A DNA stretch of 55,093 bases from a virus (taxonomy: Duplodnaviria > Caudoviricetes), in the IMG/VR virus record IMGVR_UViG_3300045993_000169, positions 1-55,093 of that record. One strand, given 5' to 3'. Positions within the stretch are counted from its first letter, which is position 1. Each line of letters begins with the position of its first letter. This document shows positions 324 through 30,333 of this stretch, piece after piece. Made by a program: the position numbers and the translations under genes. The notes beneath the pieces are model-generated. The model was not told the origin of the DNA and did not search any database. It worked only from the letters and a program-made list of their open reading frames with translations.

Positions 324-3056
324 TTACCCTCCTTCACTTAGTGATGTCTTCAATGTAGTAACAGACACACCCAAAGCAGAAGCAATCTCTGCCTGTGTTG
401 CACCATTCTTTGCCATTGCCCTAGCCCTTGACTGATTAGCTGTAGTCATTAGAACCTTAGCCCTTGGTGTAGCCAACTGCTTGATCTGATCTAGATCAGC
501 ATTGTCAAGGATCTTATCCAACCTATCACGACTAATAGCACCAGCCTGTATAGCAGCCCATTCACTATCTGTTAGTACTATCTTAGGCTTCTTAGCGCCT
601 GTCCTAGTACGGGCAGTCTCAAGGGCCATGTACTTCATCTTCTTCTTCTCAGAGTTCTCCATGTCCTTGTTAGAGTCTATCAAGGCTTGGATCTTGGCCC
701 CTGCTATGACCTGGGCCTGTCTTTCAAGGGGGCTGTTTCTTTGGGCGAGGATCAGTTTGGCATTGAGGGAGGCTACTTCAGTAGCATAGGCGGTCTTAGC
801 AGACTTGTTTACTTTGGTAGGGGGGGTATTAATCATCTCTAACCTAGCCATGTTGGCAAGGCCCTTCATCTTGTTAGAGTGATCAGCATAGACCCTCTCT
901 ATAGGGGTGCCTTCATGATTAGGCCCTGACAATAGGGTACGTGCATCAGTAGTCTCAACTAATGCCTTTGATTTCTGGGTGGGGTACTTAACCTTCTCTG
1001 TTACCACACCTGTTCTCTTGTTAGTGGTAGTCCTAACATAAGACTCGCCTGTTGGCACAAAGATTAAAGCACCAGTCTTGCGATCTATAGGACCGCCATC
1101 TTTTGCTGATTGGAGCTTGTATTTAGGAACATCTACCCTATGCCTAGCCCTAGAGATCAGGGTTGCAGCACCTGCATTAGCCTTGCCCTGATACTTAGTT
1201 TTGAGTTGAGCAATCCCATTGTCTACAGCAGACTGTTTGTAGTTGAGGTTATGCTTCTCAGCATCGATGACCACCATTGAATGCCGAACTGCTCGAGCAA
1301 GCTCGGTTGGCGTTGCGCCCATGATAGTCATGTCTGTAATGAGGTTAGAAACAACACCCATTTGAACGCCCTTTGTATGGACGCTCATAGGCACCATGCC
1401 TTCATAAGCAGGATACTTGTCTTTAGGGTTGAAGTTCTTCAGTCCTGCCAATGCTGGTGCAGTCTTGACACTACGACTGTTGTTTGGGATGACAAGAACT
1501 GTGTCACCATCGAAGTCTGCCCCAGAAAGGCGCTCTGCTACCTTCGAGTTGATACCAATCGCATCTGATGCAGCACCTAGAAGCTTCTTTGCATCAGGCT
1601 GCCTGTTATTGACAATCAGTTCTGGGATCTCGAAGATACCACCATGAGGAAAGCGAATTAGAGCAACTCGTTCTCCATCATTGAACTTGGGGGCATAAAC
1701 TTCGTTATCCTTCATCTTGTTTACAGGGAGAATAACATGTGTTCCCTGTCTTGGCATGGCTGCTGCTTTAAGATGTACAGCCGATGAGTCTGCTGAGTCT
1801 GCATAAGACTTAAGCAACTTGACACGAACAGCAGCATTCGTCAAGGATGATATTTCATCAAGATCAAGCGTCTTTTTCTCGAAAGTTTTGGCTAGCTGTG
1901 CCTTAGCAAACTCGGTGTTCTGTTTAGAGAGCATCTGAGAGGACAAGCTTTTTGACCATTTCTCCCATTGACCTTCATCATTGACAATGTTCATCGCAGA
2001 GCGAACGGTGTGGGGGATTTCTGCACCGTTTTCATCAAGCTTCTTAAGCTGACGAACAACAGCGCCAAATGGATTTGCCTCGTCCATCTTTCCTGTTTTT
2101 TTGTCGATCTTGATTGGCTTCATGGCATCATGCTTATCGCCAGTATCACTCTTGTTCGTGTTGAACATGAGATCTACACCTTTAGGCAGGTCATCTTTGA
2201 ACATGGCCATACCTTTAAGGTAGTGCGTACCGTCAACAGCGATACGAACCTGAGCATAGTTCTTTCCGCCTAAAGAAAGATCGTCTACATTACGACGAAC
2301 ATAGACAACACCATCAGCATCAGAGCCACCTTGTTCTGCATATCGGATCTTAACCCGACTTGATGAAACTGATATTGGAGGCTCAATTCCTGACCAAGAA
2401 AGGCCGTTGTCCTCAGTGAACTCCATAAGCGGCTTGATCTTGCCGATGTCTTTCGCAATGTCGGCATACGTAGTTCCCGGAACAGCAAGACAAGTAATCG
2501 TCGTCTTGTTTGTGGTCCCAAGCTGATCTACCTGAACCTTTGTGCGGTAGTATCCCTTTTCCTGTAGGACAGCAACGGCTTTGTCCAACTTATCTCGACT
2601 AACACCAAGAATATGGTGTTCAACGCCAGCACCAATATCGACTACACCTAAAGCATCAACTTTGTCTTTCAACATGTTCGCTGTGGACATGAGTTGATCA
2701 GCCTTGAGCTTTGTAGAAGGATCACGAAGAGCACGAACCGAAGATTCGTTAATACCCATCTGTATACCAATGGCCATGTTGCTCATACCACTGTCATGCA
2801 GTTTGTTAGCCATAGAGATATCCGCTTGCTTCTGAGCATTCTTGTAAATCGACTTCTTTGCCTGAAGCTCAGCCCTTGACATATCCATGCCTTTAGCAAT
2901 CTGAGTATCTGTTAGCCCTTGCTTGTGCATTCCCTCAACGTAGTCAAGAAAGCTCTTGTTGCGCTGAGTCTCTGTATCACCACTACCCCAAGGATAACGA
3001 CCAGACTTGTGGAGAGTGCCGATGTGGGAAAGGTAGTTCTCTTCAGAAATTATCAC
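324..3056 (-). CDS. putative single-chain two-barrel (DPBB) DNA-dependent RNA polymerase, YonO/cellular-RdRP-like, with HTH domains
   Basis: GADFDGD (ADFDGD at nt 1503-1520) preceded by LIRFPH; DG..QVR..LKG motif; HSMVVIDAEKH resembles RdRP HS.AVDFPK; HTH-like segments at both termini. Confidence 0.8.
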   Translation of the reverse strand: MIISEENYLSHIGTLHKSGRYPWGSGDTETQRNKSFLDYVEGMHKQGLTDTQIAKGMDMSRAELQAKKSIYKNAQKQADISMANKLHDSGMSNMAIGIQMGINESSVRALRDPSTKLKADQLMSTANMLKDKVDALGVVDIGAGVEHHILGVSRDKLDKAVAVLQEKGYYRTKVQVDQLGTTNKTTITCLAVPGTTYADIAKDIGKIKPLMEFTEDNGLSWSGIEPPISVSSSRVKIRYAEQGGSDADGVVYVRRNVDDLSLGGKNYAQVRIAVDGTHYLKGMAMFKDDLPKGVDLMFNTNKSDTGDKHDAMKPIKIDKKTGKMDEANPFGAVVRQLKKLDENGAEIPHTVRSAMNIVNDEGQWEKWSKSLSSQMLSKQNTEFAKAQLAKTFEKKTLDLDEISSLTNAAVRVKLLKSYADSADSSAVHLKAAAMPRQGTHVILPVNKMKDNEVYAPKFNDGERVALIRFPHGGIFEIPELIVNNRQPDAKKLLGAASDAIGINSKVAERLSGADFDGDTVLVIPNNSRSVKTAPALAGLKNFNPKDKYPAYEGMVPMSVHTKGVQMGVVSNLITDMTIMGATPTELARAVRHSMVVIDAEKHNLNYKQSAVDNGIAQLKTKYQGKANAGAATLISRARHRVDVPKYKLQSAKDGGPIDRKTGALIFVPTGESYVRTTTNKRTGVVTEKVKYPTQKSKALVETTDARTLLSGPNHEGTPIERVYADHSNKMKGLANMARLEMINTPPTKVNKSAKTAYATEVASLNAKLILAQRNSPLERQAQVIAGAKIQALIDSNKDMENSEKKKMKYMALETARTRTGAKKPKIVLTDSEWAAIQAGAISRDRLDKILDNADLDQIKQLATPRAKVLMTTANQSRARAMAKNGATQAEIASALGVSVTTLKTSLSEGG

Positions 3057-11896: not shown

Positions 11897-11931
11897 AGCG
11901 ATACCTTTCTATAATTGGGTGATGCATAATA

Positions 11932-12345
11932 CTATCGCAGGTGCTGGTTTTCCAACTGTCGATGCATCCTCATGATGACCTCTTCGCCAACACTGTCGGG
12001 TCGGTTGTTGTCTCGCCGAATGGCTTCCTCAAGACTGATCATGAAGATATGGAGTTGGACTTCTGCTCCCAGTTCAGTGCAGAACTTGATGAGACGATTG
12101 CGATTCGACTTGTTGACGTTGGTGTCAGCCACGATGATGTCGACCTGATCGTAAAGGAGAACCTCCTCGATCTTGTCGTAAGCACATACCGTAACCAACT
12201 GCTCGCTGTCTCCATGTTTGAGACCCAACTCAAGTCGGATGTCGTCTCGACAAACGATAACCGCTCCTGTTCGGGCAGCCTCTTCCCTCGCCCAAGTCGA
12301 CTTACCTGAGGCTGGGATTCCAACACAAAGTGTAACTGTTGACAT
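11932..12345 (-). CDS. P-loop kinase, polynucleotide-kinase-like
   Basis: GIPASGKS Walker A, RDDIR, DTN, RxxxR lid. Confidence 0.85.
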   Translation of the reverse strand: MSTVTLCVGIPASGKSTWAREEAARTGAVIVCRDDIRLELGLKHGDSEQLVTVCAYDKIEEVLLYDQVDIIVADTNVNKSNRNRLIKFCTELGAEVQLHIFMISLEEAIRRDNNRPDSVGEEVIMRMHRQLENQHLR

Positions 12346-12376
12346 TTAGTTCCCCTTAAAAATGTGAGTGTGATTG

Positions 12377-12455
12377 ATGCACCCGGGACCACACCCCCTA
12401 CGAATATGGTCCCGACGCTCTGCGCTTAAGCCGGTTTAGACTCCCGCAGAGGAGT
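12377..12455 (-). ncRNA. pistol self-cleaving ribozyme
   Basis: ACUCC UCUGCG GGAGU CUAAACCG GC UUAAG CGCAGA GCGU CGGGACCA..UGGUCCCG GGU GC: P1, 6-bp pseudoknot, AAA, AG, GCGU, P3, G^U site; P2 only 2 bp. Confidence 0.85.
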
Positions 12456-12457
12456 TG

Positions 12458-12889
12458 TTATAGATGATGTGCTTCAACAAAGAGGCGACTCCCAATCTTC
12501 TCAGAGAGATCAGTCTGCTCCAGCTTCTCATCCCGAATCTCCTTTGCAGCAGCGGCTCGATCAGCCGTATCCTGTGCGAACTCTTCATCCTGAGCCAGAT
12601 CAAAGCTGTTCTTGAATGCCGAATCGGTATAAACCTTGAACCCACTACCAGCAATCAGGATATGATCTGTGATGTATGCCTTGGTCTGCTTGTCACTGCG
12701 AGGCTCCTTCACATTGACCTTAATGAAAGGCACCTGAATCCGCTGCTTCCGGAAGCTCTCAACCTCGACAGTACCTCCACACCATTCAGCCACATCCTTG
12801 AGGTTCTCGGCAGTTACCTGAATCTCCTTGACGAAGAAAGGCTTGCGCTTGTAGATCAAAGGCTCGATCTTTTTCTTATGCGTGGTCAT
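12458..12889 (-). CDS. conserved hypothetical phage protein
   Basis: YKRKP..EIQ pattern; resembles 13614..13949. Confidence 0.7.
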   Translation of the reverse strand: MTTHKKKIEPLIYKRKPFFVKEIQVTAENLKDVAEWCGGTVEVESFRKQRIQVPFIKVNVKEPRSDKQTKAYITDHILIAGSGFKVYTDSAFKNSFDLAQDEEFAQDTADRAAAAKEIRDEKLEQTDLSEKIGSRLFVEAHHL

Positions 12890-12935
12890 AATTCTGTTCC
12901 TCTTTCCGACTTTGGTCTTGCTGATGTAATGAAAC

Positions 12936-13268
12936 TCAGAGCTGATTGAGCTTTTCCCTGATGACGTCTCGCTTCTTCCAGACGACGTAGACCGTCACTC
13001 CGACAGCAATGAGTGCCAGCGTCTTGAGCTTCGGATGAGACTTCTTCGCGATGGTGACAGCAACCGTGGTCTCAGGCTCTGCATAAAGCAAACGCAACAT
13101 GCTCTCGCCCATGTCCGATCCGCCCCAGTAATACAGAGCATCATCCATGTCGGAAGCCTTGTCCATATCACCGAGAGCGGACTTGTACCACTGCATCATC
13201 CTGTCGAGTTTGAGTGCATCGATACTCGGAGTGCCTTCGAACACATGTGGAATTGTTGTAGACATCAT
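12936..13268 (-). CDS. membrane-anchored hypothetical protein
   Basis: C-terminal hydrophobic helix; AAGGAG RBS. Confidence 0.65.
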   Translation of the reverse strand: MMSTTIPHVFEGTPSIDALKLDRMMQWYKSALGDMDKASDMDDALYYWGGSDMGESMLRLLYAEPETTVAVTIAKKSHPKLKTLALIAVGVTVYVVWKKRDVIREKLNQL

Positions 13269-14446: not shown

Positions 14447-14597
14447 CAGTACTCCTCAATGGAGGAGCCAACGGCGGGTTCAACGATCCGGGACACATCT
14501 GTGATCCGAGATAGCTGTGCTGAACCAGCATATGATCATCCCGAAGGTCTTTGATGTGATGACAATATGGACAACGACCTTGCTCCAACTCACTCAT
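14439..14597 (-). CDS. small zinc-finger protein (52 aa, not in ORF track)
   Basis: MSELEQGRCPYCHH..H..CPGS fills the gap between coupled genes. Confidence 0.65.
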   Translation of the reverse strand: MSELEQGRCPYCHHIKDLRDDHMLVQHSYLGSQMCPGSLNPPLAPPLRSTDE

Positions 14598-15078
14598 CAG
14601 TACGACCTCCACGAGAAGGAACGTCGTCCATGTCTGCGTACTTCAGCTCGAGAGCATCCTCTTCGATGGTCACGAAGATTGACTGGAGATATGCCTTGAT
14701 CCCAGTCTTTCCGTTGACAGCCCACTCGTAGGGACGAACGATCATGTCGACCATTTTGATGTCAGCCCAGTCGAGAAGCTCGATCTCATCCTCACCCAGA
14801 TGGTTTCGACCTCGAGATGTGATCATGACAATCCTCGGAGGACGACCCTTGAAGTTGACGGACACCTGCAGATATGCTTGCTCGATGTCGCCTTCCTCAC
14901 GAGCCTTGAGCCACTTGACATTCCATCCGTCCTTAGCCATCGCAGTAGCGACGTCCTCATCCAGAAGAACAGCGAAGTTCCGATCACCCTCTCGGTTGTA
15001 CTGGCCTTCCTTACCAGCGAAGTTGCGGAAGATGATGCGGACATCCTCCATGATGACGTTTTTGTCGTCGTAAGCCAT
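14590..15078 (-). CDS. single-stranded DNA-binding protein (phage type)
   Basis: IIFRNFAG..GIKAYL, acidic C-terminus, lies near the polymerase. Confidence 0.7.
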   Translation of the reverse strand: MAYDDKNVIMEDVRIIFRNFAGKEGQYNREGDRNFAVLLDEDVATAMAKDGWNVKWLKAREEGDIEQAYLQVSVNFKGRPPRIVMITSRGRNHLGEDEIELLDWADIKMVDMIVRPYEWAVNGKTGIKAYLQSIFVTIEEDALELKYADMDDVPSRGGRTDE

Positions 15079-15507
15079 TTAGTTCTCCTTGATTGTGACT
15101 TCGAGGGAGTCAAGATATGCCCTGACTCCAGTTTTACCAGTATCAGTGTGCCAATGACAGGGATAGACGACGAGATTGACGTTGTCGAATTCGACAGTAT
15201 CGAGCATTCCGATCTCCTCTTTGGTCATGAGGATATGACCATCGTCAGTGACCTTGACGATCGTGGATGGCATCGGTCCGTTGAAGTCAATAGCAACTCG
15301 AATGAAGGGCTTCTTCTCGCCATAGAGTTCTCTGGATGCAATCCATCGAATCGTCCAGCCTTGCTTAACTAATGAATCAGCCATCTCCTTGTCGAGGAGA
15401 ATCGAGAAGCTAGGCAAGATCTCAAACTCTCCTGCGAAATCTCTGAAGATAAGCTTTGCGTTTTTCAGGATGAGGTTTTCGATGATCGTGTCGTCGGTCG
15501 TGTCCAT
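15079..15507 (-). CDS. SSB paralog lacking the acidic tail
   Basis: LIFRDFAG..GKTGVRAYL aligns with the adjacent SSB. Confidence 0.65.
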   Translation of the reverse strand: MDTTDDTIIENLILKNAKLIFRDFAGEFEILPSFSILLDKEMADSLVKQGWTIRWIASRELYGEKKPFIRVAIDFNGPMPSTIVKVTDDGHILMTKEEIGMLDTVEFDNVNLVVYPCHWHTDTGKTGVRAYLDSLEVTIKEN

Positions 15508-15509
15508 AA

Positions 15510-15899
15510 TTAGTCCTCCGTATAAATTTCGACCGGGATTCCGGCCTTTTCTGCTTTCCGGATACAATCTGCTGTGCCAATAGAGCCTTCGTGCAGGAAC
15601 GCCAGACAAATATCCGCACCAGAGTCAACCATTCTCTGATTACGAATAGGTCCAGCAGCCTTATGTTGCTTCTTCCAGTTCGCTGTGTAAGGCTCAATGG
15701 TGAAACCAAATGCCTCTGCACATATCTCAGCGAAAGTGTCAGCACCTTTTGCTCTGCCAACAATTACCACAGTGTCCTTCGGTCGACCAGCCTCTTCCCA
15801 TGTCGAGAATATGGCATGTCTAACGATTGCCTTGTCTCGCCAGTCGCGGGCTCCAGTGATCAGGATTCGATAGGTCACTGGAGCCTTCTTCTTGGCCAT
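15510..15899 (-). CDS. SLOG-superfamily protein (DUF2493-like)
   Basis: ILITGARDW, GxAxGAD, AAGPIRNxxM, GT motifs. Confidence 0.8.
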   Translation of the reverse strand: MAKKKAPVTYRILITGARDWRDKAIVRHAIFSTWEEAGRPKDTVVIVGRAKGADTFAEICAEAFGFTIEPYTANWKKQHKAAGPIRNQRMVDSGADICLAFLHEGSIGTADCIRKAEKAGIPVEIYTED

Positions 15900-22670: not shown

Positions 22671-23579
22671 CTAGATCTTGTCGAATATGGTGCCGTCGAC
22701 ATTGAAGTCGAGGAGGATGGAACCCTCACGGCCATTTACAAAAGCACGAGCACGTTCGCTATCAGCGTTGTACATGCCGAAGTCAACGAAGTTGTCGCCA
22801 ATGCCATCCTTGGTCATACGCCATCCAACGACAGCGCCTTCCTTGGACCGATCAATACCTAGAGAGTCGTAAACCTCATTGAGGAATACGTGACCGCGAG
22901 CACGGAGCCTGTCGTTCGCCCAGTCCTGCTGGCACTGGAGGAACATCCGGTTGTACTCGGGATTACGCTGCCAAGATGAAGAGTACTCGTCGAAGAACCG
23001 AGCATAAACAGACGCTCCGTTCGGACCAACTCTCGAAACCATCTTGGTCTTGGGCTCGCCCTTGTCCGTTTCCTCAAGAATCTCTCGAGTCTCCGAACCG
23101 TAGCGAAGCTCACGCTCCTTGTCTTCACCAACTTCGGTAAGGACACGTGCCCTATATTCAGCGAAGCCCTTTTCGACCGCAGCGTAAGCAGCAGTCAGTC
23201 CGATGTTTCGCTTCGTCAGGATGATGTGCGATCCTGTGAGGCAGGTAATCGAGATGACACCAATCGTAACGGCTGGCCAGTACAGCTTTGCGATTGCCAT
23301 CGCTCCACGAACGTAGATCACGGCCTTGTCCTGCTGCCAGTCCCGATCTGAGTACTTCGGGTTTCCGGTTTCATGCAGGTCATAGGCCTTGCAAAGCTTG
23401 TCGTTGGTCTCATCGATCACGTGGTCAAGATTGAGCGTTGACCGAGATGCGAGAACAACGGTTGCCACTACGCCAACAACACCAGTACCGAAGAGAATAA
23501 CCGGTGAGTGCTTCTGTCCAAGAAGAAACTGACGAGCGACTTTGGACGTTACAACGTCTTTGATTGAACTGAGGTTCAT
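22671..23579 (-). CDS. conserved membrane-associated protein (DUF6353-like)
   Basis: HSP.IL TM, AAY, F..Y, LN.VY..LG..GW; paralog of 29548..30333. Confidence 0.7.
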   Translation of the reverse strand: MNLSSIKDVVTSKVARQFLLGQKHSPVILFGTGVVGVVATVVLASRSTLNLDHVIDETNDKLCKAYDLHETGNPKYSDRDWQQDKAVIYVRGAMAIAKLYWPAVTIGVISITCLTGSHIILTKRNIGLTAAYAAVEKGFAEYRARVLTEVGEDKERELRYGSETREILEETDKGEPKTKMVSRVGPNGASVYARFFDEYSSSWQRNPEYNRMFLQCQQDWANDRLRARGHVFLNEVYDSLGIDRSKEGAVVGWRMTKDGIGDNFVDFGMYNADSERARAFVNGREGSILLDFNVDGTIFDKI

Positions 23580-29547: not shown

Positions 29548-30333
29548 TCAGTGAATCCGGTGGTAATCCCTTACCGGAGCAACTCGGAACTCAATTGCAA
29601 TGCAAGGACGCTGGTCATCAGACAGAGTTCCAGTGAACTTGCACTCTAACGGCTTCTCACTTGTCCAACCGACTTCATCAGAATATGCCGTCGTGGCAAG
29701 TCCGATGTTGTCGTAGAAGTCGCCGAGAGATGCGTAGCCATCGCTCAGCATTGTGTAATTGATGTCGTTCTGAGCCTTCTTGAGCGTCTCCATGTCACTC
29801 GTGAAATATCGCCCAGAGAAAGAGTCGAAACAGAGGACTTCGCCGTTTCCTGTGATGATGACCTCACGATCACCGACAGGATTCCGACGAACCTGATCTT
29901 GCATGACTTCATCGTGGATCTTCTGTTCCTTGCCCTGACCGATTTTCTCGACGACCTTTTCCTTGTATTCGGTGAAGGCCTTCTCGGAGATGGAGTATGC
30001 GGCAGCCACCGCAGCAGCCCGACGTGTTCCGATACGGTTGGCGCCGATGATGCACACTACGGTCGCGACAACCGTACCAATCGCTGGGATGTACTCCTTC
30101 CATACGAGGACGATCTTCTCCTTGGGCTCCAGAATATGGGGCGGGTTGCCATTTGCACTCTTGCTGATTCGATACTGCTCATCTGCGATGATCTCGACAG
30201 CCTTGATAGTTGCCGTCCCCGTAAGGAAAGCCACACCAAGCGTTCCTGTGACAGCGACAGCAGTAAGAATCGCAGGCGAGTGGTCAATCGCCAGTTTCTC
30301 AACTCGTTTTGCTACCTCAACAAACGTAGTCAT
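29548..30333 (-). CDS. conserved membrane-associated protein (DUF6353-like)
   Basis: HSPAILT TM, AAAY, SGRYF, GW; paralog of 22671..23579. Confidence 0.7.
   Translation of the reverse strand: MTTFVEVAKRVEKLAIDHSPAILTAVAVTGTLGVAFLTGTATIKAVEIIADEQYRISKSANGNPPHILEPKEKIVLVWKEYIPAIGTVVATVVCIIGANRIGTRRAAAVAAAYSISEKAFTEYKEKVVEKIGQGKEQKIHDEVMQDQVRRNPVGDREVIITGNGEVLCFDSFSGRYFTSDMETLKKAQNDINYTMLSDGYASLGDFYDNIGLATTAYSDEVGWTSEKPLECKFTGTLSDDQRPCIAIEFRVAPVRDYHRIH

Follow-up and report, generated by a model that had tools for sequence, protein, structure and literature searches.

The virus record analyzed here (IMG/VR record IMGVR_UViG_3300045993_000169, 55,093 nt; this whole stretch is called the window) carries a pistol-type RNA element on its minus strand at 12455-12377, between two minus-strand genes: a 143-aa open reading frame (ORF) upstream and a 137-aa kinase ORF downstream. 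We lean toward reading it as a pistol-class self-cleaving ribozyme—divergent, with a minimal P2 helix—that has been inherited within an actinophage-like siphovirus group. Comparison with related sequences makes descent from pistols close to certain, and useful self-cleavage by this particular copy moderately probable. The record itself is ~93% complete and siphovirus-type; almost every gene is on the minus strand, and the 1251-aa primase-polymerase shares 65% identity with that of Gordonia phages (Deejayvirinae).

An earlier note, made from the letters of the window, had described a pistol layout at this site. Reading the sequence, we find each of its elements in place and ordered and spaced as in a pistol: P1, the 6-bp pseudoknot, the AAA/UUAAG/GCG core, and the GU junction, with the first nucleotide of P1 following 2 nt behind the stop codon of the upstream gene. 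The parts are as follows, in transcript order.

12440-12455, minus strand: P1 hairpin, 12455-12451 paired with 12444-12440 (5 bp); 5/5 pairs in both the window and its orthologue in L012 (below)
12450-12445, minus strand: P1 loop, 6 nt, the pseudoknot 5′ strand; perfect complement of 12424-12419
12435-12439, minus strand: linker, with AAA at 12437-12435; the AAA is invariant in 13/13 aligned pistols and agrees with the Rfam consensus
12430-12434, minus strand: P2 5′ strand; its sole pairs are C12430-G12380 and G12431-C12379
12425-12429, minus strand: loop 2, UUAAG; U, U, A, and G columns invariant in 13/13, fourth position A or G
12419-12424, minus strand: pseudoknot 3′ strand, six Watson–Crick pairs with 12450-12445
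12416-12418, minus strand: GCG triplet, invariant in 13/13 aligned pistols; like the purine-G of loop 2, it agrees with the Rfam consensus
12383-12415, minus strand: P3 hairpin, 14 bp and 33 nt, 12415-12402 paired with 12396-12383; 5-nt loop at 12401-12397
12381-12382, minus strand: GU junction separating P3 from P2, in agreement with the Rfam consensus; predicted scissile bond G12382/U12381
12377-12380, minus strand: P2 3′ strand, of which G12380 and C12379 alone pair; nucleotide homology with L012 stops at 12380
12346-12381, minus strand: 36-nt leader with a putative 5′-OH start and a Shine–Dalgarno-like AAGGGGA at 12357-12351, read from the sequence

Two details of the note concern helix lengths. 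Its P3 of 8 bp proves to be a 14-bp hairpin with a 5-nt loop, whereas its count of only two canonical P2 pairs stands, both being Watson–Crick. P3 opens with the U12415-G12383 pair and appears in both the minimum-free-energy and centroid folds; nested folding predicts the pseudoknot helix and P3 and omits P1, the expected outcome for a pseudoknot. By position, UUAAG would supply the equivalents of purine-32 and G33, plus the U that pairs with the post-cut U, and GCG would correspond to G40-C41-G42, with G12418 as the predicted general base; roles for these loop-2 and G40-C41-G42 nucleotides are described in PMC6154101 and PMC8495972 (both in part). Junction length is strictly conserved in pistols (Harris 2015, PMC4604425, in part), and the junction reads GU in 10/14 other pistols compared and AU in 4/14. 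In the review PMC8495972 (in part), P2 is described as lengthened by a U-U pair at the cut site, and both U residues are kept in the window.

The closest relative, L012, is an IMG/VR record that is 96% complete and has its gene order in common with the window. It holds an orthologous element at the syntenic place (window 12463-12380 vs L012 9413-9495) with 88% identity over 84 nt. This is the top identity among high-scoring segment pairs longer than 30 nt in the 7-kb comparison; one 30-nt pair reaches 90%, and the best gene reaches 78% over 508 nt. Up to the GU junction the alignment spans 75 columns, in which the two differ by 8 substitutions and 1 indel. All 8 substitutions fall in helices, all preserve pairing, and they include three double compensatory changes. 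One of these lies in the pseudoknot, where C12446-G12423 becomes G-C and 6/6 pairs are kept; the others lie in P3, where A12407-U12391 becomes C-G and U12406-G12392 becomes G-C. Two further P3 pairs change from C-G to U-G, leaving 14/14 paired. The 25 unpaired columns carry no substitution at all. When 8 substitutions are instead drawn at random, every one of the 25 pairs survives in 0.3% of simulated trials, rising to 1.8% if transitions are favored. Selection for pairing acts on P1, the pseudoknot, and P3, and the comparison indicates that since L012 split off, selection has continued to hold the core and the pseudoknot.

Homology to pistols was assessed with both the curated Rfam model and models built from related phages. 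Among all Rfam families, Pistol (RF02679) is the best for 12250-12600, at 22.0 bits (E 0.055 over 351 nt); the Pistol model alone against the whole 55-kb record gives E 0.002, a value to be set beside 8/14 control genomes that match at E<=10, none above the cut-off. The low score arises because the model expects a short P3 and a 4-bp P2, where this element has a 14-bp P3 and a two-pair P2. The Rfam alignment stops at 12389, breaks P3, and treats the G-run in the loop of P3 as its cut site, because the long P3 does not fit the model. We rejected the alternative 3′ end that this alignment implies, which leaves P3 with ~2 pairs and is not conserved in L012.

A 5′-half model (R2) built from 13 pistols of related phages (alignment A8), with the window and L012 left out, places window 12455-12416 at 38.5 bits (E ~1.7e-10, by rough calibration) and L012 at 42.5 bits; the next best match within the window scores 6.4 bits. 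The leave-out score puts homology to pistols beyond doubt and, with the compensatory changes in the orthologue, upholds the earlier assignment of a pistol-type element with a predicted cut between 12382 and 12381. Relative to the described pistols of RF02679 (env25, Lysinibacillus sphaericus, Alistipes putredinis), the element is alike in the 6-bp pseudoknot that joins its P1 loop to the P2-P3 linker, in the AAA linker, UUAAG, the GCG core, the opening U-G pair of P3, and the two-nucleotide GU cut junction, and in its siting beside phage genes (PMC4604425, PMC6154101, both in part), which is already known for pistols. It differs in P2, with two Watson–Crick pairs against four in the Rfam consensus and five in the crystallized trans construct, and in its 14-bp, 33-nt P3, which the Rfam model cannot place. 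Pistols are described, in the excerpts drawn on, as prevalent in Firmicutes and environmental DNA, whereas the window is an actinophage-like virus.

Related pistols were collected through the ssDNA-binding-type gene at 14590-15078, which gave 14 viral loci and the best 80 of 379 metagenomic relatives. A descriptor requiring AAA, loop 2, a 6-nt pseudoknot strand, GCG, and 6/6 complementarity to an upstream 6-mer was run over the 106 loci then collected and matched the window and 16 loci. Three were removed before counting as duplicates (L026, same contig as L012; L031, identical to L030; L022, identical to L021). L023, with two descriptor matches, was rejected as false: its P1 has only 2 pairs, and the 5′-half model R1 does not recover it. 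This leaves 12 distinct pistols besides the window. An Rfam gathering scan of 14 descriptor-positive loci finds Pistol in 11/14, at 36.5-65.8 bits; L012, L080, and L093 are not confirmed at that score. R1, applied to 100 sources (695,239 nt), marks 15 places and nothing else at E<=1. Only 5′-half models were built because MAFFT alignments of whole long-P3 pistols (A3, A4) were too poor for a full-length model. Across 13 aligned pistols, P1 and the pseudoknot are paired in 143/143 cells, and 7/11 pairs change on both sides (3/5 in P1, 4/6 in the pseudoknot).

The group extends to cultured phages. The 41-nt pistol 5′ half of L098 has blastn matches in 12 cultured actinophage records (Gordonia, Curtobacterium, and Microbacterium phages). 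No annotation lies under the match in 11/12 of them; Microbacterium phage Count has an annotated NrdH-like glutaredoxin gene there. Two were scored with Rfam.

L107:2500-2591: pistol of Curtobacterium phage Pippin15, Rfam 51.0 bits, unannotated
L108:2501-2582: pistol of Gordonia phage Austin, Rfam 44.0 bits, unannotated

In both, the pistol starts <=7 nt from where the upstream gene ends, with an unannotated gap of 280-420 nt after it. The ten matching records beyond these two include GTE7, Amore2, HayZem, GMA7, Count, and three more Curtobacterium phages. The pistols of related phages have the same 5′ half, the one that R2 detects in the window, and those of metagenomic relatives lie, as in the window, on the same strand in a neighborhood downstream of a Phage_ssDNA_bind gene cluster. 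Several begin directly past an upstream stop codon, and P3 is often long (14-100 nt). They mostly have an AAA-UAG linker that pairs with a downstream CUG, giving 4-6 P2 pairs. Our literature search found no paper joining pistol ribozymes and actinobacteriophages, though Rfam detects those copies.

Other searches for pistols or close copies had these outcomes. Three Deejayvirinae genomes and two IMG/VR records gave a pistol in 0/5; an 11.2-bit match (E 0.65) among them was treated as noise. The region 11900-12950 has no blastn match in cultured phages. Exact-pattern scans for the same pseudoknot or linker found 0 in viral contigs and 0 in metagenome contigs, and a scan with a relaxed linker matched the L012 contig alone. 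Relatives reached via the upstream ORF (2 loci) or via the kinase (3 loci) showed no pistol at E<=1; the three kinase loci were searched again with R1 and R2, with 0 matches, because an E<=1 scan would miss a 22-bit match. An Rfam E-value scan of 5/14 viral relatives likewise listed no pistol despite L012 having one, a sign of its limited sensitivity on 60 kb.

Two observations concern the surroundings of the related pistols. In L025, a tmRNA-like gene (L025:10887-11596; Rfam tmRNA, 87.7 bits, with long insertions) lies ~700 nt upstream of the pistol. Among relatives other than L025, 2-3 tRNA genes lie 0.3-2 kb downstream of the pistol, as in L021/L022, L030/L031, and L092; at Rfam gathering level, no tRNA is seen in the window.

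The least secure helix of the element is P2. In-register P2 pairs among the first five positions are distributed as follows.

5 pairs: L025, L055, L107 (Pippin15)
4 pairs: L021, L080, L098, L101, L105, L108 (Austin)
3 pairs: L030, L092
2 pairs: L036, L093, window
1 pair: L012

Several observations weigh against the favored reading. The two Watson–Crick pairs of P2 compare with 4-6 in most relatives (9/15 have 4 or 5), and the window and L012 together are paired in 3/7 P2 cells. The P2 5′ strand carries the one indel between the window and L012, and a 1-nt indel again in a contig from run X3, as if it were unconstrained; the 3′ strand lies beyond the end of homology with L012 and has therefore been replaced in at least one lineage. 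The Rfam check suggested in the earlier note does not support its reading: Pistol is the best-scoring family, but at 22.0 bits the element falls below the gathering score of 34.5, and the whole window holds no gathering-level Rfam match. The two-sequence shuffle control on the L012 comparison is weak, with 52/500 shuffles reaching the observed value, and only the slide control is clear. Finally, the pseudoknot pairing counts among relatives are partly circular because the descriptor selected 6/6 pseudoknot pairs; P1 was no criterion.

The alternative that draws on these points, which we consider unlikely without dismissing it, is that the element descends from an active pistol and is now slow or dead as a ribozyme through loss of P2. 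P2 would have been damaged by its indel-prone 5′ strand and by replacement of its 3′ strand at kinase entry, and the conservation would reflect recent inheritance or a secondary role of the P1/pseudoknot/P3 fold, for example as a 3′-end or inter-cistronic structure. P2 pair counts of 2 in the window and 1 in L012, the end of L012 homology at 12380, 1 nt past the GU junction, the 1-nt deletion at 12433 in the run X3 contig with the L012 deletion in the same tract, and the sub-threshold Rfam score all fit such a relic. It sits poorly with the compensatory changes in the pseudoknot and P3 and with 0 changes in 25 unpaired columns since the L012 split: a dead ribozyme has no obvious need for a pseudoknot or for an intact AAA/UUAAG/GCG core. 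A short P2 also appears to be tolerated, because no more than 2 P2 pairs are found in L093 either, which belongs only distantly to the group and differs in its P1 and P3 sequences. An AAACC linker replaces the usual AAA-UAG in the window, L012, and L093, all with <=2 P2 pairs. Moreover, in several pistols above the Rfam threshold the isolated P2 duplex is no stabler than the −0.7 kcal/mol of the window (L021, −0.7; L080, −0.4; L092, +0.7 kcal/mol). As far as the excerpts of PMC4604425 go, P1 and the pseudoknot were tested by mutation there, and P2 was not.

Chance resemblance, or membership of another ribozyme class such as the pseudoknot-containing hammerhead, is extremely improbable on the same comparisons. 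The sub-threshold Pistol score would allow it, and the pseudoknot hammerhead (PDB 8YDC; PMC11300833, in part) has the same connectivity as a pistol, or nearly so, with a stem-loop engaged in a 6-bp pseudoknot. The core of the window element is instead pistol-type: its loop-2 and GCG motifs are those invariant in 13 aligned pistols, no hammerhead family matches 12250-12600 at E<=10, the leave-out model returns E ~1e-10, and the syntenic orthologue carries compensatory changes. Hammerhead core motifs, read against what we take to be their consensus, are absent from the element.

Additional sequences from two runs cover parts of the element. The run X3 contig (window 12388-12460) has a window-like P3, the L012-type change at 12423, the reported 1-nt deletion at 12433, an L012-like upstream flank, and one further difference. 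Run X1 yields a 43-nt assembly piece, 12380-12422, at ~3x the depth of its flank and ending exactly at 12380; this piece is not independent evidence because X1 may be the source sample. In wetland metagenome assemblies, the ribozyme appears to be common to several phage variants, which would differ on both its sides.

If the element is an active pistol, as we favor, its setting suggests a course of events. On the minus strand, neither a promoter-like nor a terminator-like site adjoins it, which makes co-transcription with its neighbors probable. The earlier note's proposal that cleavage splits a polycistron agrees with this same-strand array: a cut here would divide the RNA. We infer that the element would be transcribed within a long minus-strand operon; that P1 would form and its loop pair with 12424-12419, while the 14-bp P3 hairpin forms; and that the minimal P2, two G-C pairs plus a U-U pair, would set the G12382-U12381 step beside the UUAAG/GCG core. 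G12418, the G40 equivalent by position, would activate the 2′-OH of G12382, which would attack its own 3′ phosphate and break the chain before U12381. Pistol cleavage is known to yield a 2′,3′-cyclic phosphate and a 5′-OH (PMC4604425, PMC6154101, both in part). The upstream RNA would thus carry a 2′,3′-cyclic phosphate, with the folded ribozyme kept whole at its 3′ end, and the RNA of the kinase and later genes would begin with a 5′-OH, 36 nt ahead of the AUG. The predicted effect is that the two halves of the operon are uncoupled at the RNA level.

One gene of the window touches on how the operon is transcribed. The 910-aa protein encoded at 324-3056 on the minus strand matches PHROG 4291 'RNA-dependent RNA polymerase' end to end and has a C-terminal helix-turn-helix / sigma-70 region-4-like stretch at residues 875-907. 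By these matches it may be a phage-encoded RNA polymerase, with a bearing on the promoters that drive the pistol operon.

What follows the cut site differs between the window and most relatives. In 9/12 relatives aligned, a conserved non-coding module begins directly past the cut: a hairpin, then another that is variable, and then an A-rich motif (AAACAAAAAACCG or similar), beyond which the sequences diverge. The first hairpin is CUGUG...CACAG in seven and CGGAG...CUCCG in two, so two of its pairs covary. Because this hairpin overlaps the CUG of the outer P2, P2 and the hairpin may alternate before and after cleavage. The module matches no Rfam family at gathering level in the loci scanned. 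Its copies are located as follows.

L012:9494-9580: module copy
L021:3224-3310: module copy
L080:1180-1266: module copy
L098:6207-6293: module copy
L101:1355-1441: module copy
L105:3973-4059: module copy
L093:8690-8776: module copy
L030:4318-4404: module copy
L036:8629-8696: module copy

In L012 the order is pistol, module, 80-aa ORF, and lipoprotein gene. The window lacks the module; past G12380 come the 36-nt leader, the kinase gene, a 243-aa coiled-coil ORF, and the homologous lipoprotein gene. Among the three AAACC-linker members (the window, L012, and L093), the window alone is without the downstream module and has the kinase gene in its place. On the simplest interpretation, the kinase gene displaced the module in the window lineage, and the P2 3′ strand went with it. 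The pistol is older than the kinase at this site, since L012 has the same pistol at the same place and no kinase. Their adjacency looks like a one-off gene insertion with no conserved regulatory link, incidental because the kinase gene stands where relatives have a non-coding module.

The genes on either side of the element are these.

12458-12889, minus strand: upstream ORF from the ORF list, 143 aa, function unknown; TAA stop at 12460-12458, 2 nt before P1
11932-12345, minus strand: P-loop kinase, 137 aa; polynucleotide-kinase-type domain, no phosphatase domain

The upstream ORF matches PHROG 35556 and 14977, both of function unknown, and 82 records from phages of Gordonia, Streptomyces, and Rhodococcus match it by tblastn. 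The downstream gene, whose AUG is at 12345, is PNK-like, as had been claimed for it: it matches Pfam AAA_33 (2.3e-18) and PHROG 505 polynucleotide kinase (1.2e-30, positions 1-143 of 295), its best solved relative is the T4 Pnk kinase domain 1LY1 (E 6.3e-11, with the P-loop and RDD motif aligned), and tblastn finds it in 1107 phage records, the best at 46% to the polynucleotide kinase of Clavibacter phage CN1A. It scores below NCBIfam equivalog cut-offs. Like T4 polynucleotide kinase (PseT / Pnkp), it belongs to the P-loop fold family, with window residues 2-131 aligned to T4 2-143. The T4 enzyme has a 3′-phosphatase domain and a partner RNA ligase, whereas the window protein, at 137 aa, is the kinase part only, and no RNA ligase or phosphatase appears among the 38 window ORFs scanned with Pfam.

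The earlier note had linked the two neighbors in a feedback loop, in which the kinase would phosphorylate the 5′-OH of its own cleaved mRNA, alter its stability or block religation, and so tune its own level. The geometry suits, with the predicted cut 36 nt ahead of the kinase AUG; the kinase is T4-Pnk-type with its P-loop and RDD motif aligned to T4 Pnk; and pistol cleavage leaves a 5′-OH (PMC4604425, in part). The comparative record runs the other way. Apart from its own three homologue loci, none of the loci collected by the time of that comparison has the kinase, and these cover the 14 other pistol loci known at that point; nor is it present in 5/5 whole pistol-bearing phage records, in a search that recovers the window kinase as a control; the pistol 5′ half occurs in 0/6 kinase-homologue loci; and L012 carries the pistol without the kinase. 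Kinase homologues in CN1A, GiJojo, and NiceHouse (Clavibacter, Streptomyces, and Rhodococcus phages) are full-length at ~300 aa, with kinase and phosphatase, and abut the upstream gene or nearly so (a 4-nt overlap in CN1A and NiceHouse, a 65-nt gap in GiJojo). An RNA ligase lies beside or near the homologue in CN1A and NiceHouse, the usual RNA-repair setting. Our literature search found no paper on such a link, judged by titles and the openings of abstracts, and in the excerpts of Harris 2015 the kinase figures as a labeling reagent. Because kinase and pistol are not associated in relatives, the idea finds no comparative support, and we regard the loop as highly doubtful.

Parts of these results are new in a modest way. 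One is a subtype that falls below the Rfam threshold, its P2 minimal and its P3 long; the published seed or supplements may already include pistols with a short P2. The others are the fixed place of the pistol in a phage group and the module boundary at the cut site. A bolder combination is a long shot on present comparisons: that two-P2-pair pistols of the AAACC subtype are fully active, that the cut site is a boundary for module swaps, and that the kinase phosphorylates ribozyme-made 5′-OH ends, those of its own mRNA included. If the subtype were fully active, P2 would be largely dispensable in cis. If the cut site were such a boundary, most relatives would carry a structured leader RNA past the ribozyme where the window carries a kinase gene. 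If the kinase acted on ribozyme ends, RtcB-type religation could no longer reverse cleavage, and this would set how long the downstream RNA lasts.

Pistol is a known ribozyme class without an established biological role, and the present set shows that curated thresholds miss real members with a long P3 and a short P2. The actinobacteriophage group, including cultured and tractable Gordonia and Curtobacterium phages, has unannotated pistols at a fixed operon place, and the cultured phages offer a system for testing the role of pistol cleavage in vivo. The minimal-P2 subtype amounts to a natural experiment in the extent of P2 required for the fold. As for the kinase, its adjacency is a curiosity and not a system.

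Two sets of paralogues were also seen in the window. The Phage_ssDNA_bind genes stand in tandem at 14590-15078 and 15079-15609, both on the minus strand; the start of the second is probably further downstream, because as listed it overlaps ORF 15510-15899 by 100 nt. Two DUF6353 paralogues lie ~6 kb apart at 22671-23579 and 29548-30333, also on the minus strand.

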